Below are positions 1-20,000 of a DNA stretch of 20,000 nucleotides, in pieces. The stretch covers positions 49,917 through 69,916 of the forward strand of contig JAPEUG010000041.1 in the NCBI GenBank assembly GCA_026025795.1. The letters run 5' to 3'. A program made the translations under genes and the position numbers. Every line of letters starts with the position of its first letter. The first letter of the stretch is position 1. This DNA is from Thelocarpon superellum (Eukaryota). The notes beneath the pieces were generated by a model. The model did no database searches, was not told the DNA's origin, and was given only the letters and a program-made list of their open reading frames with translations.

Positions 1-295
1 CGTCTAACCGGCTGCGTCCCTGTCGTTCCACGGTAAATAGCCGGCAGGTGCCGTTAAATCCATATTCGGTGAGGAAGACGGCAATTAGGTTGAGGAGCTG
101 AGGAGGAGGTGAGGGCTTCTCAGGGACGCCGAGGGCACGGCGCTTGAGGAAGTTGAGGGCTTTCTCTCGCTCTTGTTTGGCGGTGCGGGCTTCTTTGGGA
201 TCGACGGTCTTGGGATTGAGAGCCGGGTTGTCCTCGTCTGGTGGAAACAGCCAGGCTGGCTGAGGTTTCAGCGGCGCGTTCTTCTTCTTCGGCAT
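1..295 (-). CDS. 5' part of a LisH-motif protein, probably an SRP40/Nopp140-like nucleolar protein (runs off the window edge)
   Basis: Not in the ORF track because it has no stop inside the window. ATG at 295-293 opens a frame that stays open to position 1: MPKKKNAPLKPQPAWLFPP...KPSPPPQLLNLIAVFLTEYGFNGTCRLFTVERQGRSRLD. LLNLIAVFLTEYGFNGTCRLFTVE fits the LisH pattern. An N-terminal LisH preceded by PPP is what I recall for filamentous-fungal SRP40-like proteins, but the diagnostic SRP40 C-terminal domain would lie outside the window. Confidence 0.65.
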   Translation of the reverse strand, partial: MPKKKNAPLKPQPAWLFPPDEDNPALNPKTVDPKEARTAKQEREKALNFLKRRALGVPEKPSPPPQLLNLIAVFLTEYGFNGTCRLFTVERQGRSRLD

Positions 296-330
296 CGTAA
301 ACGTGGCGATGAAGAGCGCCGGTGAGGAGT

Positions 331-369
331 GGAGGTGGAGGAGGTGGAGGAGGTGGAGGAGGTGGAGGT
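331..369. repeat. (GGAGGAGGT)n-type short tandem repeat upstream of the LisH gene
   Basis: Sequence reads ggaggtggaggaggtggaggaggtggaggaggtggaggt. Confidence 0.85.
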
Positions 370-572
370 GAGCGGTGGAGAAGTCGATTGTGGGCCACGA
401 GTGGAGCTCGAGGTGAGGATTTCCCACGGAATCGACAAAAAAGATCTTAGCGTCGTGTGCGCACGGAAGCGGTGGAGGAAGCCGTGGACGACTATGACCC
501 GAAGCGGGAAGGCGTGAAGGGGAAACTCTTTGGCGAGACAGCCGTCGACGGCTCGACAATGGGACGTGATAG

Positions 573-580
573 GTCACGTG
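573..580. promoter_or_regulatory. GTCACGTG E-box (Cbf1-type bHLH site) in the divergent LisH-gene/SEC3 promoter
   Basis: Exact GTCACGTG near the middle of the 296-851 intergenic region. Function is inferred from the motif only. Confidence 0.4.
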
Positions 581-851
581 CACCCCTGGCCAGCATCTTC
601 GCTGCTGCATTGCTGTCGCTGTCGCTGTCGCTGCCGCTGTCGAGTGATGGCGTCAACGCGGCATAAGAGAATGACGACGTGACGTGCACTTCCCCTGATC
701 CATTTGTCGCGCATCATGAGCATGGTCGCAGACGGAATGCATGTGGTCTGATCCCTCGTCGACGAGCTCACCCGACCGCTACATGTGCGACTCATGCCCG
801 AGCTCGGGCGCTCTCCCCTTCTGGCCTTGAGCGCGCGCCTCGTCTGGCACC

Positions 852-3090
852 ATGTCAGCCAAGACACGGGCCGAGAAGTTTGAGGATGAGAAACGACGGA
901 TCGTGGAGAGTTGCTTTGCCAAACAGGACGAAGATGGCTCATGTAAGGCCGAGGCCGCTCGACGCGGGTGAGAATCGTCTCATGTTGACCACCCTACAGT
1001 ACTGGAGTCGTACATCACCCACGTTCGCATCGTCGAGGACGCGGCATACCCATCGACCCCGGCACCTCCCGAGTCACCTCCCGAGAATAAGAAGCCTCGC
1101 ATCATCATCGTTGCGGTGCGCAAGTCGGGCCGGGTGCGGATGCACAAGGCGCGAGAGAACAACAATGGCAGCTTCTCCATCGGCAAGACATGGGTGCTCG
1201 ACGACCTGTCGGCCATCCAATCCTTCACCGGGCCCGCGTCGCTCAAGCGTGAGGAAGAGCAGCAACGGCAATGGGCGGGCGGGGCCGGGTTTGTGGTAAC
1301 GATCTCCAAGTCCTACTACTGGCAGGCGGGCACGTCGAAAGAGAAGGATTTCTTCATCGCGAGTCTGGTGAAGATCTACAAGAAATACACGGCGGGGAAG
1401 GCGCCGGAGTTGCTCGGGTTTGACGCGCGCGAGCGGGAGCAATTGCTCGGACCACAGGCCGCGCGAGGGCCCACACCCGACGCCGTGCCGCGGGAGGTGC
1501 CGCGGGATATCAACACAAGGGATGCGGCCATCTCGCCCGCAGCACCACCGCTCCGGTCACCATACCTGCCGGTGGAAGAGCCGCGTCCGAGCATCGACTC
1601 GCGAACGGGCAGTCTCACGGGGAGTGTCCCGTCCAGTCTCCCCAGCAATGGCATCTCGGCGGCGCGGGGGTATGGACGGGATTCGTCCGACGGACCCAAG
1701 GCGCCCAGCGATGGACGACCGTCACGCGACGAAACGTGGATGGCACCCCGCAAGCCGGAGTTTCCCAAGCCCGACTATGTCAAGTCGGAATACGCGAAGC
1801 CGGAGTATGCTAAGCCAGCCCTTCCCCCGCCCGACCATCCCAAGGCGGACTTGGCCAAGACGGAGGCCCCTAGCGAGAGCAAGGAGAGCGTCACGTCGCC
1901 ATCGTCGGTGGATTCTCGAGACCGAGAGGACGAAGACCACCGGCCAGGACTCGGGCCGATGATCAAGCAAAAGTCGAGGCGAGACATTGGCGCGGCATTC
2001 CGCAAGGCCGCCACGGCGTACACGGCCTTCCGACCACGACCGGGCGGGGCGGGGGAGAAGCTACGGGAGGAGGGACTCAAGGAGCCCGACGGCATGACGG
2101 CCGTGGTACCAGCGCCATCCCCGCTCTCGCGCGGCGTCAGCCAAGATGGCAGCGTTAGCGGGGCCAAGCGCATCAGCGACGCGACCGAGCCAGTCCCAGA
2201 AGTGATGGTGACGGGGGCCATGTCACCGCCGCCGCGGCCCGCACACCGACCCTATTCCTCGCGCGAGCGAAACGAGGCCAGTCGGCCGTCGACCCCACGC
2301 ACCAGCCTACCCAAGGCCGGGATCGTGGCCCGCACGCCGCCACCGGCTGCCGCCGCCGCGGCTGCGATCCAGCAACGAAAGAAGGCACAGGCGGAGGAAA
2401 CGGCACGCTACGTCGCGCACCTCGGCATCGACCCGCATCTACTCGGCGACAAAGCCACGGACATTGACTGGATCCTGAGTGATTTCGGATGTAGCGGGGG
2501 AGACGTGAAGAGCGGACGAGAAGGCACGGGCGGAAAAGAAGGAGAGATGCGCGGCTCGCCATCACGACGGCCCACTCCCCAGAGCGGGTCGACGGCCTTT
2601 CCGGCCCCGCTGGCCTCGCGGTTGAAGAAGCCCGAGGAGCTCGAGGCGGAGCTGAAGCGAGAGCTGGGACGAGTGGAGGCCGGGAGCTGGCTGGGCCTTG
2701 CGTCTGCGTCGGCGGCGTCGTCATCGTCTCCCTCGCGGCAATCCTCATCGCAGGCGCCGCAGCAATTCGAGGAAAAAGACGAGCGAGTGGCGGTGGTGGA
2801 GCGGCTGCTTGATCAGGCCATGGCGGAGTGTGACGAGTTGCAGGGACTACTGACGCTCTACAGCGTTGAGCTGAGCGTAAGTTCCTCCCCTCCAGCTGTG
2901 CAGGACGAGCAACGAGCGAGGAGAAGAGAAGAGTGAAGACGCTAAGATGAAACCCATATGGCAGACGCTCAACGACGACATCTCCTACATCGAAGCACAA
3001 TCCGGCGGGCTGCAGGTCCAAACGGCGAACCAGAAACTACTCCAGTTGGAACTGCAGACACGGTTGCATTCGCTCAATGTGCCGAGATGA
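852..3090 (+). CDS. SEC3: Exocyst component Sec3, apparently C-terminally truncated (~697 aa); exons 852-942, 1000-2876, 2965-3090
   Basis: Exon 1 encodes MSAKTRAEKFEDEKRRIVESCFAKQDEDGS. Intron 943-999 (GTAAGG...GTTGAC...CAG) joins it in frame to LLESYITHVRIVEDAAYPS...PRIIIVAVRKSGRVRMHKARENNNGSFSIGKTWVLDDL...YYWQAGTSKEKDFFIASLVKIYKKYT, the Sec3 PIP2-binding PH-like domain. Later comes ELGRVEAGSWLG...ECDELQGLLTLYSVELS. Intron 2877-2964 (GTAAGT...GCTAAG...CAG) leads to TLNDDISYIEAQSGGLQVQTANQKLLQLELQTRLHSLNVPR, followed by TGA TGA. Confidence 0.9.
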
Positions 3091-3325
3091 TGATCACTCC
3101 GCCATCTCTCCTCCTTCTCTTTCCCTGCTCTTTCTCTTTCCCGCTTTCCCCTGCCATGGATGGGCGGATGGTCAGATGGTCAGATGGGTGGAACTAGGGC
3201 TGGGCAGTTGCATGCAAGGGAAACGGACATGGGAAGGGAACCGGCGGGCAGGCGGGCGCTTCTGACTCATATACGCCTTGTGTATCAATACCTCTTCTAC
3301 CCAAGTCTTCCACTTCTTCCCCTGC

Positions 3326-3437
3326 TTCCTCTCCATCGTCTTCTTCTTCCTCTCCATCGTCTTCTTCTTCCTCTCCATCGTCTTCTTCTTCCTCTCCATC
3401 GTCTTCTTCTTCCTCTCCATCGTCTTCTTCTTCCTCT
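3326..3437. repeat. 21-bp minisatellite, 5 perfect copies plus a partial copy (TTCCTCTCCATCGTCTTCTTC)
   Basis: Units start at 3326, 3347, 3368, 3389 and 3410, with a partial unit at 3431. It lies between the convergent 3' ends of SEC3 and NDUFV1. Confidence 0.95.
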
Positions 3438-3631
3438 TCTTCATCACGTCAAGTCTCGGTCAAAGGTTCCATGGAATGACCCTTTCGGCGTATGGTAAGA
3501 TGCAGGCAGTAGTAGGATGGTACATGGCGCAGCGATTGATGAATCGGTAGAAAACGCCGCTTCTACCGCTCTTACTCCCCTCCCTTTCCCCCTCCTTGTT
3601 CTCCTCGTCGTCTCCATCCCTGCGTACTCGT

Positions 3632-5302
3632 CTACTGACCGGGTGATATCAGCAACCCCTTCTTCGACGCATCGTGCTCCCATCCGCCTGCGAGTGCGGT
3701 CCCCCCTTGCGCAGCTGCGTAACTCTTCATCCGCGCTTCGAGCTCGGGTCGGAAGTGGCGGATCAGGCCTTGGATTGGCCATGCGAAGGCTTCGCCCAGT
3801 GCTGTCATGTCCCCACCATCTCATCAGTATCGTGCAGGTTTCAGGATGCACCTAGGGATGGAGGGATGCGTGAGTGTGCAAAGGGGAATGTCCTCACCAC
3901 AAATCGTATGTCCCTCGACCTGCTTCGTCAATTCTTGCAGCATGTCAATCTCCCGTTCGCGCGCCTGACCCCGCTCGAAGCGCTTCATCACTTGCTCCGT
4001 CCACTTGCTGCCCTCGCGACACGGCGTGCATTGGCCGCAGCTCTCGTGGCGGTAGAAGGTCGACAGGCGACTGATGCAGCGGACCACGTCCGCGCTCTTG
4101 TCCATGACGATCACGGCCGCCGTGCCCAGACCAGACTGCGAGTCTTTGAGGGCGTCGAAATCCATCAGCTGCTCGTCGCAGATGCTCTTGGGCAGGATGG
4201 GCGTGGAGGAACCGCCGGGGATGATGGCCTGCAGGTTGTCCCACCCCCCTCGTACTCCGCCACAGTGTCGGTCGATGAGCTCGCGCAGGGGAATGCTCAT
4301 CTCTTCCTCCACCGTGCACGGGTGATTGACGTGGCCCGAGATGCAAAAGAGCTTCGTGCCCGAGTTGCGTTCGCGGCCGAACGAGGCAAACCAGCCCCCT
4401 CCCCGGCGACAGATGGTCGGTGCCACGGCGATCGTTTCCACGTTGGCCACCGTCGACGGACATCCAAAGAGACCGACGGCGGCGGGGAAGGGCGGCTTGA
4501 GGCGGGGCTTGCCGGGTTTGCCCTCGAGCGATTCGATCAGTGACGTTTCCTCGCCGCAGATATACGCCTGTCATGTCTGTCAGCGAGCCCTCCGTCATCA
4601 GATCAGCAGACCCACCCCCATGCCCCGGTGGATGAAGACATCAAAGTCGTAGCCGCTCCCGCACGCATTCTGCCCGATCAAGCCGTCTTGGTAGGCCTCT
4701 TGGATGGCGCGTTGCAGCACCGTGGTCTCGTGGTAGAACTCGCCCCGGATGTAGATGTAGGCCGCGCTACAGTTCATGGCCCGTCCCGCCACCAGACAGC
4801 CCTCGACCAGCTTGTGTGGGTCCTTGCGCATGATCTCGCGGTCCTTGCACGTGCCGGGCTCGCCCTCGTCGGCATTGACCACGAGGTAGCGGGGGGTGGT
4901 GCCCTGCTCCCAGCCCTTGGGGTTCATGAACGACCACTTCATCCCGGCGGGAAAGCCCGCGCCGCCTCGTCCGCGCAGGCCCGAGGCCTTGATCTCCGAG
5001 ATGATCCAATCATGTCCCTTGGCGAGGATCTCCTTGGTCTGGTGCCAATCGCCGTATTTCTTGGCGCTCTTCAGGTCGGTGCCGTGGTGACCGTACAGGT
5101 TCTGGAAGATGCGGTCTTGGTCCTTGAGGCCGCCAAAGTGGGTGCGTTTCGGCGGTCCATCTTGCACCGTGGCGAGGGATCGGGTGGCCGTCGGCGACCG
5201 GCGCGAGGAAGTGCCCGCGACCGAGGTGGAGGGGAGGACGCGAAGGGGACCGGCGGTCAGTGTCCGCGACGCAGTCGACACCGTCTGAGGACGGGCAATC
5301 AT
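3632..5302 (-). CDS. NDUFV1: Mitochondrial NADH:ubiquinone oxidoreductase 51 kDa FMN-binding subunit (nuo-51), ~508 aa; exons 5302-4616, 4567-3898, 3801-3632
   Basis: Arg/Ser/Thr-rich presequence, then [18 protein letters not shown] and [18 protein letters not shown]. Intron 4615-4568 (GTGGGT...GCTGAC...CAG, 48 nt) joins [18 protein letters not shown]. The Fe-S motif [12 protein letters not shown] follows. Intron 3897-3802 (GTGAGG...CAG, 96 nt) restores [28 protein letters not shown]...GLLISPGQ, ending at TAG 3634-3632. Confidence 0.97.
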
Positions 5303-5488
5303 CGTGATGAGGTGCCGCGGGACACGTCAGGTGTGATGCAATACACCTCGAATCGCCCGGGAGTCGAGCCGTCGATCTTCGATGGTGAGGACGAGCGTGG
5401 AGGTCGATCCTCATCATCGACTTTGTGGAACAGTTGATTGGTGGCGTCGTCGGCTAGCAATGCACTAGGCGTAGGACTGTGTTAGAAG

Positions 5489-5754
5489 TAGTAGCTGCAC
5501 GGCCCCGCCACGTGACCTAGCACAGTAGTGGAGCAGCTCAGGCCCCGGGGACTGAGACTGCACAGTCATTCGACAGGCCTATCGCTGCTGGCCTCCCTAT
5601 CCGACCACGCGAGCGTCGTGAGTGGAATAGTAGCTGCGCGGCCCCAGCACGTGACTTAGCATGGTAGTGGAGCAGCGCTGGCCCCGGGGACTACGACCCT
5701 ACAATCAATCAATGGGCCTATCGCTGCTGGTCCTCCTACCCGGTCGCGCGAGCG
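5489..5754. repeat. Diverged direct duplication, 127-bp copies at 5489-5615 and 5628-5754 (period 139 bp)
   Basis: Ungapped manual alignment gives about 25 mismatches in 127 bp (~80% identity). Each copy contains CACGTGAC (5509-5516 and 5648-5655) and the palindrome CCCCGGGG. Confidence 0.9.
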
Positions 5755-6031
5755 CGGTAACACGTCGCAACCGACTGCACACTACGGGAGACGAGGTGGA
5801 CCACGCTGACCTCCGTCAACAAATCTTCTCGAAGAGGCTGGCGACGAGTGGAGACTGAGCTAACGAACAATCAGGTACAACCAGCGCAAGCCGAGGTCCA
5901 TTGACTTGGTGGGCGACTATGCCGGACAAGAGCTCTTCTTAGTCCTTCTACCCGATCGCGCGAGCGCTGTGACACGTCACAACCGACTGCAGACTACGGG
6001 AGACGAGGTGGACCACGCTGACCTCCGTCAA
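5730..6031. repeat. Second direct duplication, 90-bp copies at 5730-5819 and 5942-6031
   Basis: Ungapped manual alignment gives 6 mismatches in 90 bp. Both copies end in ...ctacgggagacgaggtggaccacgctgacctccgtcaa. Confidence 0.92.
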
Positions 6032-6165
6032 GCTCCCTCCCCGCCGCGAAAGTCCCGGTGCTCGTCCTCCGAGAGTACTCGTACAGCCGAAGGCGTCCTC
6101 GCGTGACGGGAGAGCTCGTCGTAGTGTGAGAGCGGAAAGGACAGATGGAAAGAGAATGAGCAGCA

Positions 6166-6850
6166 ATGGCCGCGACCAAACGAGCCTCCACCATCCCCAC
6201 GGGCCCCAAACCACCGACGACCATCGCGGCCACTGCCATCATCGCCGAGCACGCCAACCTCACTGGCACGCACCGCATCACGGTGGGGGACAACACGGTG
6301 CTGCATCCGCGGGCCAAGATCAGCTCCGTCGTCGCACCTGTCACCATCGGCCAGGGATGCATCATCTGTGAGCGGACGGTGGTGGGGATGAGGGGGGACG
6401 CCGCTGAGGGTGCTGGCGCTGGTACTGGCACCGTCATCGAAGACGCCGTGCAGATCGAGGCCGGCGTCGTGGTGGAAGCGAGCCGCGTGGGCAAGGGCAG
6501 CGTGATTGAAGTCAAGGCGCGGATAGGCCGGGGGGCAGTCTTAGGCCAGGTGGGTTTGTGGGAAAGGATTCATCTTGAAAGACACCTGTTTCACTTCCAT
6601 TGCTACCATCTCCCGAGGAGGACAAATGACTGACGGTACCCCGCGATAGCACTGCAAGATTGGCCCCCTATGCGAGGTGGCCCCCCACGAGGTCCTGCCC
6701 GATCACACCATCCTCTACGGCACGGGCCAGCGACGGATCGACCGCTCGGGCACCGACGAGCGACGCGTGGCCGCGGCCGCACGACACGTGGAGGCGCTGC
6801 GGAAATTGATCCCGTCACATTTGGCCAAGTGGGCCTCGTCGGAGGCATGA
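6166..6850 (+). CDS. DCTN6: Dynactin subunit 6 (p27)-like left-handed beta-helix protein, ~194 aa; exons 6166-6549, 6650-6850
   Basis: Hexapeptide-repeat sequence IIAEHANLTGTHRITVGDNTVLHPRAKI...VTIGQGCIICERTVVG...VGKGSVIEVKARIGRGAVLGQ. Phase-0 intron 6550-6649 (GTGGGT...ACTGAC...TAG). Exon 2 encodes HCKIGPLCEVAPHEVLPDHTILYG...HVEALRKLIPSHLAKWASSEA*. Confidence 0.85.
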
Positions 6851-7187: not shown

Positions 7188-10100
7188 TCATTTGCCACCT
7201 CCGCCGCGAACCCGCTTCCCCGTGTTCCCTGTATCACCGCTCTCCTCCTGGCCATCTTCACGCGGCCGTTTGTGACCGCCCGGGACGAACTGGCGGGCGC
7301 CGACGTTCAACCCGCCGCGTCCGGCTGGACTGTGTGGTCGGGATCCGGGTCCTGGTGGTGGCACGTTCGTCTGCACGTTGGGTGCGCTTCCTCCCCGTCC
7401 AGCGCCGCCTTGGCCGCGCCCGCGGCCGCCCGGGCCCCCTCGTGGAAGGTTGGAGCCGCCGCCTCGTGCGGTCTGGGTGGCGGGTGCGTTGGCCACGGGC
7501 GCTGGCGCTGCGGCACCGCCTCGACCACCGCGTCCACCGCGGCCGGCGGCACCGCCGCCACGCGGAATGGCCGATGGCGCCTGCCCCATGAGACTCCGGA
7601 GCGCGCCCGGCCCCGTGCCGGCGTTGGCAGCGTGCGAACCGGGGGCAGGCTTGGCCGGTAGCGTAGATGGCTTTGCGCTTGCTCCGCTTGCTCCGCTTGC
7701 CGACAGTGGAGGCACCGACGCTGGCTGGTGATTGGTCGACGGCGGCACGATCGCGTGGATTGGCGTCGGTTGGCCAAAGACACTGGCCACCGCGGCCGGG
7801 GCCGGCGCAAAGGTGGGCGTGGGCGCGGGCCCGTTCGTTGGCGGCGCAGGTACGGTGGCGGCCGGTGGCATACCCGCGGGACCGAACGGTGGCGCTGTGG
7901 CCGCCGCCGCAGGCGTGGGGACGGGCGCGGGTGCGGGTGCGGGTGCGGGCGCGGGCGCGGGCGCGGGCGGCGGCTTGGCCGCCTTGGCAATCTCCCACAC
8001 CTCACCCACCGGTCGTTGCGGCGTCTCCGAGGCGGCCCGTTGCACAATCTCCACCTTGACCACCAGCGTGCGCGCCTTGCCCTCGGCCATGCTGAGCTTC
8101 ACCTTCTGTCGCTGCTCCGCCATGGCAATGGCTTGCTCTTTCTCCTTCTCCGCCTTGCTCTGCGCCTCCTTGACCCTTTCCTGCGCCACCGAGTCCTGCT
8201 CCTCCCGTAGCTTCTTCGTTTGCGTCGCGATGTTGTTGCGGATGATGCTCTTCAGCGTCGCGTTGCTGCCCACCAGCTCCCGCGCCTGCGCATCCGAGAG
8301 CACCCACTGCGACACGGGAGTCTCCGACGGCTCGGCCTTGACCGCGGCCGCGGTGGCGGGAGCGGTCGTCGCCGGCTGGGAGGCGGACACGCGCGCCGTG
8401 ACCCGGCCGAGCTCTTCCGCGTGCGCCGCCTGCACGCGCTGCGCCTCGGCCTGGTGGGTGGCCGTCAGCGCGTCGAGTGCGGCCTGATGCTCGGCCTCCA
8501 GCTGTTGTCGGGTCTGCTCGCGCATCTGCTCCTTGGACTTCTTCAGTTGCTCGTTCAGCTGCGTGCGCATGCTGTCCGTCTTGCGCTTGTACTGCTCCTC
8601 TGCCAGCTTGACCCGCTCCGCGTGTCGGGCCTCGAGCGTCGCCTTGATGCCCTCCACCTGCTCGAGCACCGTCTGTCGCGTCTCGTCGTCCACCGGCGTC
8701 TGATCGAGGGCCGCGCTCACGTCGGCCGAGGTCTTGAGCGTCTCCACCTCCTGCTGTGCCTGGGCAAGATCCGCGCGGAGACGCTCCAGGTGCGCCGCCG
8801 CCTCGGCGTCGTGCGTCTCGGCGGCTTGGGTATGTGACATCTGGAGTTGCTGCACTTGCGCCTGAGCCTCGGTCAATCGTCGCGCCAGATCATCCTGCGT
8901 CTTCGTTAGCGGGCGTGATCTATTCATGGTGGCAGGAGCGCTCACCCGTTCCTCTTCGACCTCGGTCAACCGAGCCTGGAGCGTGGCCAACGCCGCTTCG
9001 GCCGTGTTGGCCCGGGCCTCGGCTGCGGCCTCGGCCGCCTTGGTGTCCATGGATGGATCCATCACGACCGCGCTGACGGCGGGCGCCGCCGCGGGAGTGA
9101 TTGCCGCTTCGGCCGACGGTGCGGCGGGGTCGGGCATGGCGACGTCCGCGTCGGCGGTCGGATCGCGCCCGGGGCCGGCGAGGGCCTGGTCGCGCTCGGC
9201 CTGGGCTGCGGCCAGGGCGGTGCGCAAGCTGACCAGCTCGGCCTCGAGCGAGGCCTTGTCGTTCGTCAGGGCCTGGCACTCGGCCGTCTTCTCGTTCTTG
9301 GCTTGCACCAGCGCGCGTGATCGCTCCTTGAACTGGTTCTTCATCTTCTCGCGCCCCTCGCTCCACTGGGCCGCTACCTCCTCCTGCGCCTGGCGGATCT
9401 GGTCCGGGATGGATGCGACCTGCGCCTGCAGTGGCGCCCAGGTGGCCTGCTCCGCCCGCAGCTCGTCCCGCGTCGTCTCTAATCCGGCGAGCTGCTCCTT
9501 GAGCGCCTCCATCTCGGCCGGGTCGACGCGGTCGTACTTCTGCAGGATGTGCTGGTTGCGCTGCTGGTACCGGTCGCGATCCTCCTTCAGCAGCCGCATC
9601 TCCCCCAGCTGCGTCTCCTTCTCGTTCTCCAGCGTGAGGATGGTGGCCCGCAGCGGCTCCATCTGCGCCACCAGCGCCTCCACCTCCCGGCTCTTCTCCG
9701 CCAGCGCCGCCTGCGCCTGGCGCGCCTCGTGACGCAGGGTGACGGTGCTCTCGCGGTAGAGGTTCAGCTCGTTGATCTTCTCCACCAGCTCGCTGTGCGT
9801 CATGTTCTGGCGCTGCTCATCGGCCTGCGCGTGGCGCGTCTGATCGAGCTTGAGCCGGGTGTCGTCGAGCTGCGACTGGGTGTAGTCGAGCTGCTGCTTG
9901 AGCCGCTTGGCCTCGCGCGTCGAGAGGTCCAGCTGCACGTCGACAATGTCCTTGCTCTCGCGGATGTAGCGCACCAGCTCCCGCAGCTCCTCCGCCGACC
10001 GATCCGTCGCCACGCCCGTCGTCGGGCCCGCGGCGTCGTCGCCTTGGCCGTCGCCGTCGCCGTCGCCATCGCCATCGCCCTCGGCGTCGGGAAAAGCGGC

Positions 10101-13100
10101 GCGGTGCTGCTGCAACGCGCTGACCTGGCCACTGAGGTGGTCGAGCTGTTGGTGCAGCAGCTTGTTCTGCGCGTCCACGTTGTCGCCTCGCACCCGCAGC
10201 TCGGCCATCTCGCGCTCGTACCGGTCCTTGCGTTCCTCCCAGCTGAGCTCGCCCTGGCGGAGGGCCGTCTGCGCCACCTCGACCTCGGTGCGCAGGCCGA
10301 CGACCTCGCTCTTCAGCTCGTGGTAGTCGGCGCGGGCGGTCTGCAGCGCCTTGGCCGCCTCGGCGTGCTTGAGCAGCTCGTTCTCGTAGTTCTGCTGCGC
10401 CTGTCGCGCGATCTCGGCCTGCGCCTTGACGTACTCTTGATTGAATTGCGCCGCCGTGGCATGACGCTCGTCTTCCGTCTTGAGCCGGACGATCTCGGCT
10501 TCCAGTGTGGCCTTGTGCTCGTCGACCTGTCGGAGCTGCTCGGCCTGCATGTCGCGCACGGCGGCGAGGTCGCGGTGGGCCGTGGCCAGCTCGGTCGTGA
10601 CATCCTCGACTCGGTGCTCGAGGTCGCGGATGCGGGCGTCGCGGCTCTCGACGACGCGATCCGTGTCCTCGCGATACTGCTCGTGCGTGTGCAGCTCCTC
10701 CTCAAGCGACTCCCCGATGGCCTTGAATTGCGCGATCTGGATCGTTTTGGTGTCGAGCTCGCGTCGGGCCACGTCGAGCTCTTCGCGCACGTCAGCGAGG
10801 TCTTGTGCGAGCTCGTCCTCCCGGCTCACGGCCGCCTCCTCGTCCTCCTCTGCCTCCTCGGTGGGCGGGGCCGGCGTGGCGTCGGATGTGGGGGCCGCGG
10901 GCGCGGGCGCGCGGGGGGTCGGCCGTGGCGCCAGCTGCTGGGCGCGTTCTTCGGCACTCTTGAGCGCGACGGAGAGCTCGTCGACGCGGGCCTGGAGCAG
11001 ATCCTTGGTCGTCTTGGCCGCGACCAGCTCCTCGCGTACCGCGCCGAGGTTGGCGCGCAGGTCGTCGATGGTCTTGCGCGCCTGCGTGGCGTCGTAGTCG
11101 TGGCGCAGCGTGGCCTTCTTGCCGTCGTCGACCTCGTCCGCCAGCTGGCGTCGCGTGGCCTGCAGCTCGGTCTCGAGAGCCTCCAGCTGGCCGTGCAGCT
11201 TGCGCCGGCTCTCGGCGTCGGCCAGCTCGCGCTCGTTCTGCAGATTCTGCATGCTGGCGATCATGCGGTTCAAGCGGGCGCGCTCGCTGGTCAGGTTCTC
11301 GTGGTCGTCGGTCAGACGCTGCTCGATGCGCTTCCAGAGTTCCTTCTCCGCCTTGAGGTTGGCCGTCTCGTTGCGCATGCCGTCGACGACGGCCTTGGCC
11401 TCGATCAGCTCCTCGGCCACCTGCTGGGTGCGCATGTCCTGCTTGGCCGCGCCCTCGGCCAGGGCGTGCGAGCGCTTCTGCAGCTCCGCGTTCTCCGTCT
11501 TGAGCATGTCGTAGTTGGCCTGCAGCATCTCGTAGCGCTCGCGCGCCAGCGTAACCTGGCTGTGGGTGCGTGCCACCTCGGCCTGCAGCTCGCCCTTATC
11601 GTGCGCCAGCCGCTCGCTCTGCTCCTTGAGGGCGCGGTGGTCGGTCATGGCCTCCTCCCGGTAGGCATCGAAGTGCTGCTGCATCTCCTTGAGTACACGG
11701 CCGAGATCGGCGGCGTCCTTGGCGCCGGGGGAGGCCTCGGTGGAGACGACGGAGCCGGCGCGGTGCGGCGTCACGGGGGTGCTGCCGTCGACCGACTGGC
11801 CGAAGAGGCTGGTGAGGTCGGCGTGGGGCGGCAGCGGGCCGCGATGCTGCAACATGCGTCGGAACATGTCGCGCTCCTTGACGTAGCTCTGCGACTTGAC
11901 GACCATGGTCTTCATCTCGTCCTTGTACCGCTCCACCTTGCCGCGCAGCGTCTGCAGCTCCGCGCGATCCTGCAAGTTCTGGTCCTGTTGCTTGCGGGCC
12001 TCGGCGCCCTCGAGGCTGTCGCCGAGCTCACGGGTGATCTTGAGCAGGCTCAGGTTCTGCTCCTGCAGCTCCTGGATGTTCTTGAACACGGTGAGTCGCT
12101 GGCTGATCAGCTGGCCGGTGGCGGTCAAGCCCTCGAGCGCGGCGGCGTCGAGGTCGCCGCGGGCCAGCTGCTCGAGCTGGCGCTGGGCGGCGGGGTCCAA
12201 GGGGTCAAGACCCTCGTCGCGCGCGTGCACCTCGCTCAGGAGCACCTTGACCTGGGCGCTGAGGTCGCGCAGCTGCTGGCGCAGCACTTCGCCCTCGCGC
12301 CGCTGGCCCTCGACCTGGCCACCCCACTTGCGCGCGTCCCTCTTGGCCTTGTCGCGCTCCCTGCCAATCTCCTCCAGCAGGGCGGTCATCTCGACGACCT
12401 CGGACTCGAGGCGCTCGTGCTCCTGGCGCATCTCCTGGATCTCGGGCTGTTTGGATTCGAGGTCGCGGATCATCTCGTCGATGGTGGCGCTGAGCTTCTC
12501 GTTGCGGCGTCGCTCGCGTTCCAGCTCGGCCTGGACGCTGCTGTAGTCGCTGTACATCTGCGTGAGACTGAGGCCGCCCTTGAGCCGGCCGGAGGCGGGG
12601 GACATGGCGGCGTCGCGGCCGGGGGTGCCGGGAGTACCGACGCCGTTAGTGTCGCGGCCGGGGGTGCCCGCGACCGAGGGCTGGCGGCGCAGGGTGTCGA
12701 GGTCGGCTTCGGCGCGCTCGAGTTGCACCTCGAGCTCGGTGAGGCGGCGCTCGGCATTGTCGCGCTCGGCGCGCTCCGTCTCGACTTGGGCGTGCGCGTG
12801 CGCGAGGTCGTCGGCCGCATCCTCCTTGGCCTGGTCGAGGCTGGCCTGGACCTCCTTCAGGCGCTCGCGCGCCGTCTGGGCGGAGCTTTCCAGCAGATGG
12901 GCCAGGCGCTGGGAGGCCTCGAGCTCCTTGCGGAAGGACTCCTGCTCCTTGGCCGCGTCTTCCTGCAGCCGCTGGACCTTGGCAAAGGCGTCGTCGGCCT
13001 TCTGTCCGACTTGCTCGAGGCGGGCGCGTAAGGTGGTCTCGGTGCGACGCAGGGCGTCGACGGTGGCGTTGGCCTCGTCATTCTGGCGTTGCAGCTCGGC

Positions 13101-13793
13101 GATGCGGGCGCCCTTCTCCTTGCGGTGCTTGACCAGCTCGGCGGTCTTGGCCTTGAGCTCGCTGTCGAGGTAGTCGTTGCTGCGCTGGACCAGCTCCATC
13201 TCCTGCTGCAGGCTGGCCTCGCGGAACTTGGTGGTGGTGGAGGCGGCGCTGGCTTGCTGGAGCGACTGCTCCACGGTGGACAGCTCCCTGCGCAGGTCGA
13301 CGCTCTTCTGGTGTTGGGCGGCGAGGTCCTCGGCGAGCTTGTCGTGGGCCGTGGTCTTGGCCTCCAACAGGGCGACGGTGTCGCGGCCGGACGACTCGAG
13401 CGAGGCGATGCGGGCGCGGAGCGATTGGACGTCGGCGTGCGAGGTGGCGGTGGAGGAGCGGACGGCCTGGAGCTCGGCCTCGAGGGTCGAGCGGGCGTTC
13501 TGGGCGTCGGTGAGCTGTCGCCGGAGCTCGGCCACGTCTTTCAGGGCCTTGTCGACGCTGGCCTTGAGCCCGCGGGTGCGGGCGTCGGCGGAACGCACGG
13601 CATTCTCCAGCTCGACGTCGACGCGGAGCTTGTCGGCCTTGGTCTCGTCATGCTCACGCGCCTTGGCGGCGACGGCCTGGAGGACGGCATGGACGAGGTC
13701 GATGGTAGGGGCGTCGACGATGGTGGTGAGAGTCGACGGAGGGAGGGCGAGGTAGGTCGAGAGGTAGGCGGTGTCGATGACGGCGGCCGCCAT
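7188..13793 (-). CDS. MLP1: Nuclear-basket coiled-coil nucleoporin Mlp1/Tpr homolog (~2184 aa spliced); probable intron 8945-8895
   Basis: Likely start MAAAVIDTAYLSTYL (ATG at 13793). Very long heptad coiled coil with Tpr/Mlp-like segments: QVLRQQLRDLSAQVKVLL-like, ISQRLTVFKNIQELQEQNLSLLKITREL, AQQNYENELLKHAEAAKAL, INELNLYRESTVTLRHE, ILQKYDRVDPAEMEALK. Ends in a Pro/Ala/RGG-rich tail with a bipartite NLS-like KRPRE...KRVR. Confidence 0.92.
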   Translation of the reverse strand: MAAAVIDTAYLSTYLALPPSTLTTIVDAPTIDLVHAVLQAVAAKAREHDETKADKLRVDVELENAVRSADARTRGLKASVDKALKDVAELRRQLTDAQNARSTLEAELQAVRSSTATSHADVQSLRARIASLESSGRDTVALLEAKTTAHDKLAEDLAAQHQKSVDLRRELSTVEQSLQQASAASTTTKFREASLQQEMELVQRSNDYLDSELKAKTAELVKHRKEKGARIAELQRQNDEANATVDALRRTETTLRARLEQVGQKADDAFAKVQRLQEDAAKEQESFRKELEASQRLAHLLESSAQTARERLKEVQASLDQAKEDAADDLAHAHAQVETERAERDNAERRLTELEVQLERAEADLDTLRRQPSVAGTPGRDTNGVGTPGTPGRDAAMSPASGRLKGGLSLTQMYSDYSSVQAELERERRRNEKLSATIDEMIRDLESKQPEIQEMRQEHERLESEVVEMTALLEEIGRERDKAKRDARKWGGQVEGQRREGEVLRQQLRDLSAQVKVLLSEVHARDEGLDPLDPAAQRQLEQLARGDLDAAALEGLTATGQLISQRLTVFKNIQELQEQNLSLLKITRELGDSLEGAEARKQQDQNLQDRAELQTLRGKVERYKDEMKTMVVKSQSYVKERDMFRRMLQHRGPLPPHADLTSLFGQSVDGSTPVTPHRAGSVVSTEASPGAKDAADLGRVLKEMQQHFDAYREEAMTDHRALKEQSERLAHDKGELQAEVARTHSQVTLARERYEMLQANYDMLKTENAELQKRSHALAEGAAKQDMRTQQVAEELIEAKAVVDGMRNETANLKAEKELWKRIEQRLTDDHENLTSERARLNRMIASMQNLQNERELADAESRRKLHGQLEALETELQATRRQLADEVDDGKKATLRHDYDATQARKTIDDLRANLGAVREELVAAKTTKDLLQARVDELSVALKSAEERAQQLAPRPTPRAPAPAAPTSDATPAPPTEEAEEDEEAAVSREDELAQDLADVREELDVARRELDTKTIQIAQFKAIGESLEEELHTHEQYREDTDRVVESRDARIRDLEHRVEDVTTELATAHRDLAAVRDMQAEQLRQVDEHKATLEAEIVRLKTEDERHATAAQFNQEYVKAQAEIARQAQQNYENELLKHAEAAKALQTARADYHELKSEVVGLRTEVEVAQTALRQGELSWEERKDRYEREMAELRVRGDNVDAQNKLLHQQLDHLSGQVSALQQHRAAFPDAEGDGDGDGDGDGQGDDAAGPTTGVATDRSAEELRELVRYIRESKDIVDVQLDLSTREAKRLKQQLDYTQSQLDDTRLKLDQTRHAQADEQRQNMTHSELVEKINELNLYRESTVTLRHEARQAQAALAEKSREVEALVAQMEPLRATILTLENEKETQLGEMRLLKEDRDRYQQRNQHILQKYDRVDPAEMEALKEQLAGLETTRDELRAEQATWAPLQAQVASIPDQIRQAQEEVAAQWSEGREKMKNQFKERSRALVQAKNEKTAECQALTNDKASLEAELVSLRTALAAAQAERDQALAGPGRDPTADADVAMPDPAAPSAEAAITPAAAPAVSAVVMDPSMDTKAAEAAAEARANTAEAALATLQARLTEVEEERVSAPATMNRSRPLTKTQDDLARRLTEAQAQVQQLQMSHTQAAETHDAEAAAHLERLRADLAQAQQEVETLKTSADVSAALDQTPVDDETRQTVLEQVEGIKATLEARHAERVKLAEEQYKRKTDSMRTQLNEQLKKSKEQMREQTRQQLEAEHQAALDALTATHQAEAQRVQAAHAEELGRVTARVSASQPATTAPATAAAVKAEPSETPVSQWVLSDAQARELVGSNATLKSIIRNNIATQTKKLREEQDSVAQERVKEAQSKAEKEKEQAIAMAEQRQKVKLSMAEGKARTLVVKVEIVQRAASETPQRPVGEVWEIAKAAKPPPAPAPAPAPAPAPAPVPTPAAAATAPPFGPAGMPPAATVPAPPTNGPAPTPTFAPAPAAVASVFGQPTPIHAIVPPSTNHQPASVPPLSASGASGASAKPSTLPAKPAPGSHAANAGTGPGALRSLMGQAPSAIPRGGGAAGRGGRGGRGGAAAPAPVANAPATQTARGGGSNLPRGGPGGRGRGQGGAGRGGSAPNVQTNVPPPGPGSRPHSPAGRGGLNVGARQFVPGGHKRPREDGQEESGDTGNTGKRVRGGGGK

Positions 13794-14621
13794 GATGACG
13801 GGCCCGCGACCGGTCACAGCACCCTTCTCTAGGGAGATGCCCGGAGATCGGTTGGAGTGAGAGCCCGCGACCCTACTCCATCACCTCACCACGGACGCGC
13901 TGGAGATCGACGGCATCCGCGAGGGTGATGCGGCTCTTTCGCTCCGCTTGGTGGGTTGGGGGTTGTGAAGCTTGTGAGCGTTGTGAGCGTCTTGATCGTC
14001 GGAAGTGTGTCGTGAGCGTCGTGAGTGTCGTGAGTTGGGCGTTCCCTCCGATGGATGGGGCGGAGATGGGCACCAGCCGAGGTATGCACGGGGCGCCTCT
14101 GATGTTCTCGGGCTCCGTCCGATGAAGGGAGGTCCCTCGGTGAGTGTCTTGGGAGTCAGTCCTCGGGGAGTTCCTGGAGTCACTGGAGTGTTTGGCGGTG
14201 TTTGGCGTGGCTGGTGTTCTTGATCCCATTGATACTTTTCTCTTGGCGCGGATGACATAAGCCAGGTACCGACCAGCGGCGGGTGGAGTAGCGGCGTCGC
14301 AGGTACCACGATACCGAGGATCTAGTACGGGAGGACTCCTGTCACTAAATAATGTTACCTTCGTTCCCATTCCTCCACTCGGCTCCCCGTCTCATCTCCC
14401 CCGCCAGGGAAGAGGGCCTTCCATCTTTCCTCTGTTGCCCTTTGCTCTCATCAACATCCCAACACGAGGGACTCGACTTCCCTTGGCTACCGTAACAATC
14501 GTGCGGATGGGCCCGGCGGAGGTATTGCAAGTGATGCTCTAGGACGCCTTGGCCGCCTGTCTGTCATCTCTCCTCCGGTGTCTCTCTCGGCCTCGCTCCT
14601 CACCCGGCCTCTCCGGCCGCC

Positions 14622-15506
14622 ATGTCGTACCTCCAGAAACAAGTGGATGCCTTCAGGACCGATCTCTCCTCCACCTCGGCCAAGATCTCCAACAAGCGGA
14701 CCGTCGGCCCGCCCTCCGCTCCGGCCACGTCGACGCCGTCCTCGACGCCGCCGACGCTCAACCCGGGCAAAAATGAGCTCAAACGGAAACGTCCCGAGGC
14801 CCCAGCCATCGTCTACTCGCAGCCGGCGGACACGGGCACGGGACGGTACATCATGACGCAGGTGACATATGCCGTGGAGCATCTCAAGAAGAAGGAGGCG
14901 CCCCGGACGCTGGCGCAGATCGTGGACCACCTGAGCCTGCAGAGTCAGAACCACGACAGCCGCAAGAACATCGCGCAGATCCTCAAGCGCCACGAGCGGG
15001 TCGAGTTCTCGCGCGACCCCAACTCGCCCGCCTGGGACGCGGGCACGTATCGCTTCCGGCCGATGCACAACATCCGCTCGGCCACGGAGCTGCTGGCCCA
15101 TCTCCAGAACCAGCGGTCGGCGCAGGGCCTCTCGGTGCGGGAGCTGAAGGAGGGCTGGTCGGGGGCGGAGGAAGCGATCGACCTGCTGGAGTCACGCAAC
15201 AACATCCTGGTGACGCGCAACAAGAAGGACAACCACGCGCGCATGGTCTGGGCCAACGACCCGTCGCTGGCGCAGCACGTCGACCCGGAGTTCCAGGCGC
15301 TATGGCACGCCATCAAGCTGCCCGGCAAGGACGAGCTCCCCGCCGAGCTGGTCAAGCTGGGCCACAAGCCGACCAGCTCCGACCCGAGCATCCCGTCGGC
15401 GCGCAACGTCAAGGAGAAGAAGGCCAAGAAGCCGAAACGGGGCGGCCGCACGACCAACACCCACATGCTGGGCATTCTCCGCGACTATTCCTCCTTTAAG
15501 AAGTAA
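14622..15506 (+). CDS. TFA2: Transcription initiation factor TFIIE beta subunit (294 aa, no intron evident)
   Basis: Motifs VYSQPADTGTG..IMTQVTYAVEHLK, YRFRPMHNIRSATELLAHLQ, GLSVRELKEGWSGAEEAIDLLE, ILVTRNKKD..ARMVWAND and VDPEFQALWH, plus the basic C-terminus KKPKRGGRTTNTHM. Confidence 0.95.
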   Translation: MSYLQKQVDAFRTDLSSTSAKISNKRTVGPPSAPATSTPSSTPPTLNPGKNELKRKRPEAPAIVYSQPADTGTGRYIMTQVTYAVEHLKKKEAPRTLAQIVDHLSLQSQNHDSRKNIAQILKRHERVEFSRDPNSPAWDAGTYRFRPMHNIRSATELLAHLQNQRSAQGLSVRELKEGWSGAEEAIDLLESRNNILVTRNKKDNHARMVWANDPSLAQHVDPEFQALWHAIKLPGKDELPAELVKLGHKPTSSDPSIPSARNVKEKKAKKPKRGGRTTNTHMLGILRDYSSFKK

Positions 15507-15674: not shown

Positions 15675-16461
15675 TCACGGCGTAGGCAGGCCATCTGCAC
15701 CCGTCGTTCCCTTCTCCTCCACACGGGCTCCACCATCGCGACGGTCAAGATAGAGCACCAGATCCTCGATCGTGCAGCAGCGCAGGCCCCATCGGCGCGC
15801 AAAGCGCAGACAGGCCTCCTTGCGCATCATGCCCGCCCCCGCGTACTCCGGCACGCCCGGCACCTCCTTGCCATCCTCCACCAACTCACCGATGACCGCC
15901 GTATCGCCCCGGCCCGCCAGCCGGCAAAACTCCACCGCCGCCTCCGTGTGGCCCTTGCGCTCGCGCACGCCCCCGTCCCGCGCCGTCAGCGGCAGGACGT
16001 GCCCCGGTCGCCGGAGCCGGTCGGCCGTCGCGTCATCACCCGCGAGCGTGCGGCAGGTCAGGGCCCGGTCGGCGGCGGAAATGCCCGTCGTGACGGCCGC
16101 GTCGTTCGCGTCCACGGAGATGGTGTAGGGCGTACCATTCGGGTCTTGGTTCTTCGTCACCATCGCCGGTAGGCCGAGGCGCGCGGCACGCCCCGCCGGC
16201 ATGGGCGCGCAGATGTAGCCGGACGTGTGTCGGATCATGAAGGCGCATTTGTCGGTGGTGAGGGCTTGCGCCGCGATGATCAGGTCGCCCTCGTTCTCGC
16301 GTGAGGGCGAGTCGAGCACGATGATGAAGGAGCCCTTTTCTACTCCGGGCTGTTAGCATGGCGGGTGAGAATGGAACGCGGGAAGGGCCGTCCGTACTGA
16401 AGGCCTCAACGGTCTCCTCGATCGTGTCGAAGTCCAATTCGGCATCCGTCGCGAATGCCAT
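15675..16461 (-). CDS. RIB3: 3,4-dihydroxy-2-butanone-4-phosphate synthase (riboflavin biosynthesis), ~242 aa; exons 16461-16398, 16339-15675
   Basis: Exon 1 encodes MAFATDAELDFDTIEETVEAF. Intron 16397-16340 (GTACGG...GCTAAC...TAG, 58 nt) joins in frame to KKGSFIIVLDSPSRENEGDLIIAA. Further motifs: TTGISAADRALT, RRPGHVLPL, RKGHTEAAVE. Confidence 0.96.
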
Positions 16462-16987
16462 GGTGTCGTGGGCCGAGGCCAATGCGGAGAGGCAAGGCAA
16501 GACCCCGCCGGGGGAATGAAGTGGACGATGGACGATGAACGATGGACGGGGACAGCTTCACGATCTATATGGAACTCGTGCGGCGAGCGTCCTGCACACG
16601 GACGTCCGTTTCAATGGCGAGCGCATCCTCGGCCGCTCAATGGCACAGACGATGCTGACATGGCGTCGAGAAGATGATTGTCTAATCATCGATCATCCTC
16701 AACTTTGAACTCGCCGACCGCATCTCCGCCGACGCCCTCGCCCCTCCGATTACGGCATCACTCAAGTACGAGCGGTTGGTGGACATTACGCACGGCGCTC
16801 TCCCGCCCCCGGCTCCCGGCCCCGGGCCCCCGGCGGTAGCCGTGAACGTGACGGGCCCCCGGGCACCCACGACAGCTTACCTAAGCCTTCAATGGCATCG
16901 TCGTTGACGGGTGGAAATGTCGACGATGGCACTTCATGTGGAACAGCGTCTGGAGTGCCTTGACACGACCATGATGCTCCCCCCTCG

Positions 16988-17848
16988 ATGATGGCCCGTC
17001 CGCGGCTGTCTCCACCAGCCATTCGATATGTCACTTCTGTCCTCCGTCCCTCGCGCGCTCCCGTTCGCCATCACACGACGTCTTCCGCCCCCCCCTCTTC
17101 CGCTGATCCCGCCGAGGTCTCCCACTTCAATGCCCTGGCCTCCACGTGGTGGGATGCTCATGGCTCCTCACGACTGCTCCATCTCATGAACCCCCTCCGC
17201 CACGACTTCATTACGAAATGCCTCACATCGGTCCCCTCAGGAGCACCGTCCGATGCACTGCGCTACCTTGATGTCGGATGTGGCGGCGGCATCTTCACCG
17301 AGAGCGCCGCCCGTCTGCCGCACACCGCAAGCGTGACAGGCATTGATCCCAGCGCCGACGTCCTCGCCGTCGCGCGCACCCACGCACGACGCGATCCATT
17401 TCTACAGGCGGATGGCCGCCTGACCTACTTGGAGAGGACGATCGAACAGCTCCCGAAGCCCTCAACACGGCAGGAACAATACGATGTCCTCACGCTCTTT
17501 GAAGTCATCGAGCACATCTCCGAGCCGGCGCCATTCCTCGAATCGTGTCTCCCCTTTGTCAGGCCCGGCGGGTGGATCGTCCTCAGCACGATCGCCCGTA
17601 CCTGGACGAGCTGGGTGACGACGAAGCTCGTGGCGGAAGACCTGGCGAGGATCGTCCCGCGCGGGACCCACGAGTGGACGAAATACATCAATGAAGATGA
17701 ATTGCGCACCTGGTTCGCGCGACAGGAGGGGTGGGGGGATGCTCGACGTATGGGGGTCGTCTATCTTCCTGGCTTGGGCTGGCGAGAGGTCGGCGGCAGC
17801 GAGAAATGGGGGAATTACTTCTTTGGCATACGGAGGGATCCCGCCTAG
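16988..17848 (+). CDS. COQ3: Ubiquinone biosynthesis O-methyltransferase (Coq3/UbiG), mitochondrial, 286 aa
   Basis: Arg/Ser-rich presequence, then EVSHFNALASTWWDAHGSSRLLHLMNPLRHDFI, SAM motif I YLDVGCGGGIF, LFEVIEH, GGWIVLSTIART and VPRGTHEWTKYINEDEL. Confidence 0.96.
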   Translation: MMARPRLSPPAIRYVTSVLRPSRAPVRHHTTSSAPPSSADPAEVSHFNALASTWWDAHGSSRLLHLMNPLRHDFITKCLTSVPSGAPSDALRYLDVGCGGGIFTESAARLPHTASVTGIDPSADVLAVARTHARRDPFLQADGRLTYLERTIEQLPKPSTRQEQYDVLTLFEVIEHISEPAPFLESCLPFVRPGGWIVLSTIARTWTSWVTTKLVAEDLARIVPRGTHEWTKYINEDELRTWFARQEGWGDARRMGVVYLPGLGWREVGGSEKWGNYFFGIRRDPA

Positions 17849-19655: not shown

Positions 19656-20000
19656 CGTCGTAGCGTGAGAAAGGACCGCTGGCCGGGAGAAGATGGCGGT
19701 CGTGCAATAGAGAGCAGCTTGGAGCAGGCGGCCCCAACTGAAGAGGTAGCCTTGACTCAACGGGCGGTCCCAGGTCTAAGAGGCGTGGTACAGCGACCAA
19801 GAGTGGATCCTTACACGACAGCAGGAGAGCTTTATAAGGGCATGGCTCCCGCATCCTTCGATCCCACCAAGGACGCATAATGCCTCGTCCGGAAGTCGCC
19901 GAGCGATGTCTGCGCAATAGTTGACGCGTGTGAATCGCCGCGCGATTAGGCTGACGGAGAAAGTTCAGGGCTTTCAACAACGACTGGCTTAAGGTCAGAA

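Follow-up and report, generated by a model that had tools for sequence, protein, structure and literature searches.

A half-length SEC3 gene in Thelocarpon superellum, cut at the predicted junction of the CorEx-type helix and the CATCHR rod

The SEC3 gene and its locus

The window analyzed here is a 20,000-nucleotide stretch of the Thelocarpon superellum assembly GCA_026025795.1 (contig JAPEUG010000041.1, positions 49,917 to 69,916), and it carries on its forward strand a gene for the exocyst subunit Sec3 (EXOC1) with about half the length of its fungal orthologs. The gene model consists of three exons (852-942, 1000-2876 and 2965-3093). Exon 1 opens with the ATG at 852 and ends in phase 1, and is followed by a 57-nt intron (943-999, GTAAGG...CAG). 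Exon 2 completes the pleckstrin homology (PH) domain and continues with an extended disordered linker, a short helix, an insert of low complexity and the initial half of a long helix. The second intron (2877-2964, 88 nt, GTAAGT...CAG) occupies the same position as in the Sec3 genes of other Pezizomycotina, and the coding part of exon 3 spans 2965-3087. Homology to ten full-length orthologs, as determined with tblastn, ends at 3081 or 3084 in all ten cases; from 3081 onwards only Pro-Arg is encoded before a double stop, TGA TGA, at 3088-3093. The frame is uninterrupted, and its 697-aa product, the C-terminal end of which reads ...ELQTRLHSLNVPR, matches letter for letter the database protein P0121 (source name: hypothetical protein, Thelocarpon superellum metagenome-assembled genome, MAG, contig of 69,916 bp). 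The original prediction, made from the DNA letters alone, had described an intact PH-like N-terminal domain, two canonical introns and an unbroken frame closed by TGA TGA at 3088-3093 after some 697 aa, and both this gene model and the Pfam matches agree with it; the tail after the QKLL motif comprises 15 codons, where about 14 had been counted.

The Sec3-PIP2_bind family (PF15277) matches the product over the whole model (positions 1-87) with 101.3 bits against a cut-off of 25.3, and occupies residues 28-128 of the exon-2 translation. The match to Sec3_CC (PF09763, 133 positions) is split by intron 2, with model positions 21-59 in the terminal part of exon 2 (24.8 bits) and 60-99 in exon 3 (45.4 bits), so that only positions 21-99 are matched and positions 100-133 are missing. 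Sec3_C-term (PF20654) has no Pfam match in the protein. The PH domain, the coiled coil and orthology hence identify the gene as a member of the Sec3/EXOC1 family that lacks the C-terminal CATCHR region.

All exocyst subunits share a layout in which a CorEx helix leads into a helical rod, and the PH-like domain of yeast Sec3 binds phosphatidylinositol 4,5-bisphosphate (PIP2), Rho GTPases and the SNARE Sso2. In the AlphaFold2 model of the window protein, residues 1-180 adopt a PH fold with high confidence, a long stretch of disorder follows, and residues 625-692 form a single helix. The PH fold, a putative PIP2/Rho/SNARE-binding module encoded by 852-1448 (intron 1 included), shows block means of 82-96 in the predicted local distance difference test (pLDDT), and Foldseek aligns it with the yeast Sec3 PH structures 3A58, 5LG4, 7Q83 and 3HIE at E values of 4e-18 to 7e-15, with template modeling (TM) scores, normalized on the target, of 0.74-0.81. 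The helix is predicted to be continuous over 68 residues and of the CorEx type; it corresponds to Sec3_CC positions 21-99, its DNA (2781-3072) is split by intron 2, and it finishes five residues short of the C-terminus. The corresponding helix is also present in the model of P0252 (mean pLDDT 79.8), an open reading frame (ORF) for the C-half of an ortholog. There it extends as far as the I of DTISIS, with a break behind it, and this helix end falls in the very alignment column at which the homology of the window protein stops. The structural models thus place the cut where the long CorEx-type helix naturally ends, at the helix-rod junction.

Downstream of the double stop, 538 bp (3094-3631) separate SEC3 from the stop of a convergent gene. 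This gap has a GC content of 0.533, compared to 0.658 in SEC3 exon 2, and presumably holds two 3' untranslated regions; it contains CT-rich tracts and, as revealed by a repeat scan, a perfect 21-bp minisatellite of 5.4 copies (3325-3437). The convergent gene (3632-5326, minus strand, exon limits approximate) was identified as NDUFV1, encoding the 51-kDa subunit of complex I, because of its matches to Complex1_51K, SLBB and NADH_4Fe-4S. These features are those anticipated in the original prediction, namely a gap of about 540 bp up to an NDUFV1 stop at 3632, with pyrimidine tracts, a minisatellite and no Sec3-like remnant. With regard to the last point, tblastn with the ten full-length orthologs revealed no Sec3 remnant in the gap or in the rest of the window, yielding only chance matches (E > 0.1), and an unfiltered (--max) hidden Markov model (HMM) search with a profile of the C-half in all six frames of the 20 kb matched only 2965-3111. 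The Sec3 C-half is not at this locus. As a separate observation on the minisatellite, a contig of the public sequencing run X1 at depth 8.5 omits 63 nt of it, equal to three units, which suggests copy-number variation in the sample.

Upstream of SEC3 lies an open-ended ORF of 217 aa (2-652, minus strand) without a Pfam family, as is also the case, at E <= 0.001, for an ORF of 534 aa (18171-19775, minus strand). Two pairs of direct repeats are found between NDUFV1 and the next gene, one at 5489-5754 (127 nt, 80% identity, spacing 139 nt) and one at 5730-6031 (90 nt, 93% identity, spacing 212 nt); Rfam and tRNA scans of the 20-kb window, this region included, returned no match. Positions 7188-13880 of the minus strand form a single open frame of 2230 codons that encodes TPR/MLP1/MLP2 nucleoporin domains and shows no evident intron, and most of the long overlapping ORFs in other frames were traced to it. 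The other neighbors look ordinary and encode a hexapeptide-repeat, dynactin-5-like protein (6160-6633), TFIIE beta (14535-15506), a DHBP synthase (15675-16352) and a class I methyltransferase (16964-17848).

The stop in the DNA and the conservation of the retained half

We examined the end of SEC3 in public sequence data, giving no evidential weight to parts of the window without cover in the data sets X2 to X4. In run X1, in which 95% of the sampled words were found and which probably represents the sample behind the window assembly, the stop is bridged by two overlapping unitigs (2962-3097 at depth 165 and 3068-3323 at depth 154), at a depth like that of the flanks (about 160-180). Five linked single-nucleotide polymorphisms at 2906-2961, all inside intron 2, have a depth of 52 out of a total of 147.7 and define two haplotypes in a ratio of roughly 1:2. 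Since the haplotypes rejoin before exon 3, both have the same SEC3 end. Furthermore, a 151-nt contig (2969-3119) of X3, a moss metagenome from a separate study, crosses the stop with both TGA codons unaltered and differs from the window only at 3063 and 3069, two changes that are synonymous in the Sec3 frame. Further metagenome-contig differences, at 2256 and 2578, change residues within the disordered linker.

Some features of these data weigh against a genuine stop. Because X1 is probably the source of the window assembly, it provides no independent support, and no X1 record covers the stop with 31 letters on either side. The X1 unitigs break at 3068-3097 (a 30-nt overlap), where the depth drops by about 11 and leaves room for a minor alternative path, and the minisatellite stretch 3324-3408 is not resolved by them. 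The depth of the X3 contig, in turn, is only 2. A minor branch of the graph may leave at 3068-3097, though none appears among the X1 loose ends shown. The original prediction had named a misjoin or collapsed sequence near 3090 as an outcome that would overturn it, and such a misassembly is contradicted by the full and even X1 depth over the stop and by the agreement of the X3 contig. The SEC3 truncation is not a misjoin and its end is real in the DNA, where the N-terminal part of Sec3 stands as a gene of its own with its own stop.

A real stop could still be the product of a recent nonsense mutation or rearrangement in a dying gene. The in-frame read-through past the double stop, SLRHLS, bears a weak likeness to the ortholog continuation (qlqsLr), and was considered as a relic of Sec3; the likeness amounts to two leucines in nine positions, is not significant, and was rejected. 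In contrast, the protein of the congener Thelocarpon impressellum ends no more than four residues away, and both retained domains are conserved. We compared the window protein with six comparators, comprising T. impressellum, four full-length orthologs and the half-length protein of Geoglossum simile. Identity to T. impressellum is 79% in the PH module, 72% in the long helix and 39% in the linker; for the other five comparators, these values are 69-76%, 63-78% and 32-36%, respectively. Poor conservation is therefore confined to the linker, and the same pattern is seen against the full-length orthologs.

The low-complexity insertions flanking GRVEAGSWLG on which the original prediction had remarked are present, and align to gaps in the closest full-length ortholog. 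The insert at residues 599-624 (2703-2780) is private to the species, with 20 of its 26 positions gapped in all six comparators; it sits between helices and has pLDDT values below 50 at residues 604-617. The relaxed constraint that these insertions had been taken to hint at finds no support in the identities to the six comparators, which amount to 69-79% in the PH domain and 63-78% in the helix, and fall to 32-39% only in the linker.

Frame breaks, lost conservation and contradicting reads are all lacking, and the reading of the half-length gene as an assembly artefact or a recent pseudogene is most improbable and largely refuted. Judging by its sequence, the gene appears functional and shows no sign of decay, and we consider it very likely that the window carries a genuine, maintained and functional half-length SEC3.

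Half-length Sec3 annotations in other fungi

A search for proteins of similar length listed 120 matches, which we classified by the exon-3 motif. The great majority (105 of the 120) stop within 90 aa past the LYxxEL motif and lack the exon-3 motif, and are thus interpreted as ORF-caller fragments that run into intron 2. Unlike these metagenome fragments, which resemble it in length (about 560-900 aa) and in having the same two Pfam families, the window protein derives from a correctly spliced model that reaches its stop in exon 3. Seven matches extend well past the exon-3 motif. The other eight, the window protein among them, have PF15277 and PF09763 as their only Sec3 families; in each the exon-3 motif is present, and the C-terminus lies 9-22 residues beyond QKLL. 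Besides the window protein, they correspond to annotations from T. impressellum (P0122), G. simile (P0123), G. umbratile (P0134), Trichoglossum hirsutum (P0128), Glutinoglossum americanum (P0135), Trizodia sp. (P0131) and Thermomyces dupontii (P0201), all given by their source names, and the C-termini of these seven lie no further than about 10-20 residues from the window cut point.

The T. impressellum protein is encoded on a 324,714-bp contig, comprises 613 aa and ends in ...ELQARLNTR, four residues before the window protein; its exon-3 motif reads QKRL instead of QKLL. The four Geoglossomycetes proteins present a similar C-terminal tail, 10 residues long in each. P0135 also carries PF09809 and yet ends in the Sec3 coiled coil, which locates the additional domain upstream; it may derive from a fused model of a neighboring gene.

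We inferred the phylogeny of the N-half (35 rows, 754 columns) in a quick IQ-TREE run with support values from the Shimodaira-Hasegawa-like approximate likelihood ratio test (SH-aLRT). The resulting tree shows the two Thelocarpon proteins as sisters (96) whose terminal branches measure 0.87 and 0.60; the pair falls inside a set of seven rows (95) that also includes the full-length proteins of Caeruleum, Sarcosagium, Piccolia, Sclerophora and Chaenotheca. Elsewhere in the tree, Trizodia is the neighbor (83) of the Geoglossomycetes (100), and the position of T. dupontii is within the Eurotiales (97). Across all eight proteins, this placement implies at least three origins of the half-length state. 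The nearly identical end point in T. impressellum, with both retained domains conserved, marks the truncation as old. Given that the T. impressellum protein and six annotations from other lineages end nearby, the half-length SEC3 is best regarded as a trait of the clade, and not as a one-off of this assembly.

The original prediction had also named, as an outcome that would overturn it, orthologs in related fungi that routinely end at this position. This holds in part, in that T. impressellum and the six other annotations end at or close to it. Two points weigh against the wider pattern: the seven other half-length proteins, including the T. impressellum end, are known from annotation, some of which may represent gene models split at a lineage-specific intron, and the absence of an adjacent C-half has been shown at the DNA level only for the window. 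It is possible, if rather doubtful, that the CATCHR rod was detached or discarded several times independently in the leotiomyceta and that every such event cut Sec3 where the CorEx helix ends; the lineages concerned would be Thelocarpon, the Geoglossomycetes together with Trizodia, and perhaps T. dupontii. If true, the PH domain and the CorEx helix would constitute a minimal functional Sec3, and these fungi would provide a natural experiment showing that one exocyst subunit can work without its rod or with a rod provided in trans.

The fate of the rod and comparison with known Sec3 proteins

A search for long proteins returned 630 matches, of which the best 120, all scoring 304 bits or more, were listed. 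Every one of these 120 measures 1112-1999 aa and carries PF15277, PF09763 and PF20654, in keeping with the statement of the original prediction that fungal Sec3 proteins are roughly twice as long and possess a large C-terminal region. No Thelocarpon protein is found among them, even though the database searched contains the half-length protein of each Thelocarpon species and a full-length Sec3 of the same genus should outscore orthologs of other classes. This result bears on the possibility that a full-length SEC3 resides elsewhere in the genome, the window copy being a specialized or decaying N-terminal duplicate. An assembly labeled as a MAG could miss a gene or leave one unannotated, and the evidence from long proteins covers the best 120 of the 630 matches. 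Such a copy would nevertheless have to be hidden in both Thelocarpon species, the position of the window protein in the N-half tree is that expected of the Thelocarpon ortholog, and the conservation of its domains is ortholog-like. A truncated paralog is hence unlikely, and less probable than either gene fission or loss of the rod.

From the cut point onwards, the orthologs continue within the same exon into a C-terminal region of roughly 650 aa. As judged from the N-termini of C-half ORFs, the exon starting with TL(N/S)EDxxYIEAQS forms one ORF into the C-terminal region in most Pezizomycotina, indicating that the cut does not coincide with a widely conserved intron. We also inspected 35 metagenome Sec3 loci, none of which is closely related to Thelocarpon, Geoglossum or Trizodia. 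The C-half lies directly downstream in all 18 loci with enough DNA (about 13 distinct sequences, judged from identical match coordinates), the other 17 being cut by contig ends. One locus that had appeared to be truncated, L023, was found on closer inspection to be full-length.

The Sec3 tail of T. superellum is accordingly either encoded elsewhere or done without. Under gene fission, which is the reading we prefer, albeit tentatively, the CATCHR rod would be encoded by a separate gene elsewhere in the genome. The alternative, a serious possibility in its own right, is that the rod was lost outright in Thelocarpon, so that the PH domain and the CorEx helix would be all there is of Sec3, with the contacts of the rod dispensable or covered by other subunits such as Exo70. 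The real and conserved half-length gene fits both readings equally, and the lack of a decayed remnant downstream is also consistent with a clean deletion.

Several lines of evidence weigh against fission, and some of them in favor of loss. When residues 815-1537 of P0001 were searched against short proteins, none named Thelocarpon was found among the best 120 of 1020 matches; these were mostly unnamed, and the 16 N-termini inspected belonged mostly to ORFs beginning inside exon 3. Likewise, residues 623-1292 of P0004 searched against 1.84 billion representatives yielded nothing assignable to T. superellum among 150 of 581 matches. Three C-halves that looked stand-alone (P0370, P0385 and P0389) were tried as the Thelocarpon C-half and rejected, because a FastTree phylogeny placed the three together, close to Vezdaea and the Leotiomycetes and apart from the Caeruleum group; P0385 is moreover an ORF fragment, given its start inside exon 3. 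The Thelocarpon N-halves group with Caeruleum, and no candidate in the C-half tree adjoins the Caeruleum group. Furthermore, a rod devoid of its own CorEx helix would have no obvious strong anchor in the complex. Finally, a review reports that Sec3 is non-essential in Aspergillus niger, which renders an outright loss of the rod plausible, and that in yeast a PIP2/Cdc42-binding domain is needed in either Sec3 or Exo70 but not in both (PMC11433146).

Against loss, the missing C-half matches count for little, as they concern the best 120 of 1020 and 150 of 581 matches and an assembly labeled as a MAG by its source, which may be incomplete. In addition, PF20654 is kept by all of the best 120 of the 630 long orthologs, the C-half is adjacent in 18 of the 18 informative metagenome loci, and the rod is strongly conserved elsewhere. 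Our slight lean towards fission rests on two considerations: a removal this clean, with no remnant, is compatible with a rearrangement, and conservation of the rod is seen everywhere else.

Under the fission reading, the half-length protein would operate with the parts it retains, a PH-like domain, a long disordered linker and one complete CorEx-type helix. The conservation of this helix suggests that it may still zip together with Sec5, Sec6 and Sec8 in the four-helix core of exocyst subcomplex I, in which case the protein would act as a membrane-targeting head plugged into the exocyst. The CATCHR rod (~650 aa), produced from its putative separate gene, would then be recruited to the complex by contacts between rods.

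Two publications describe the eight exocyst subunits as almost invariant among eukaryotes (PMC6784791, PMC11555703), and we found no report of a natural split or truncated Sec3 in the literature searched (Sec3 or exocyst with fission, truncation or lichen, and Thelocarpon superellum). A Sec3 reduced to its head and CorEx helix, and kept in two diverged species, bears on whether this helix suffices to hold a subunit in the complex, on the purpose of the Sec3 rod, and on whether CATCHR subunits can split at the helix-rod junction. It also carries a lesson for annotation, in that ORF artefacts running into intron 2 (105 of the 120 listed) need to be told apart from spliced models that end in exon 3 (8 of the 120).

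The best overall match to the window protein is P0004 (source name Caeruleum heppii), a canonical Sec3 of 1292 aa. The two proteins are collinear over residues 1-622 of P0004, with 42% identity overall, and exon 3 is identical to P0004 residues 584-622 at 28 of 39 positions. The difference between them is everything past the long helix, that is, Sec3_CC positions 100-133 and the Sec3_C-term region, some ~670 aa that the window protein does without. A similar picture is obtained with Saccharomyces cerevisiae Sec3 (PDB 5YFP/6VKL), as the family profile matches 5yfp_A at an E value of 1e-70; in the profile alignment, the window protein ends at about residue 738 of the 1336 residues of yeast Sec3, and the CAT bundles of the rod are missing. 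Published work speaks for the ability of the helix to hold the protein in the complex, as Exo70 mutants with a mobile rod are thought to remain bound via the CorEx motif (PMC7041683). The CorEx coils that hold each exocyst tetramer together are given as helices of 67-115 aa in a review (PMC11555703), a range that accommodates the 68 aa of the helix retained in the window protein.

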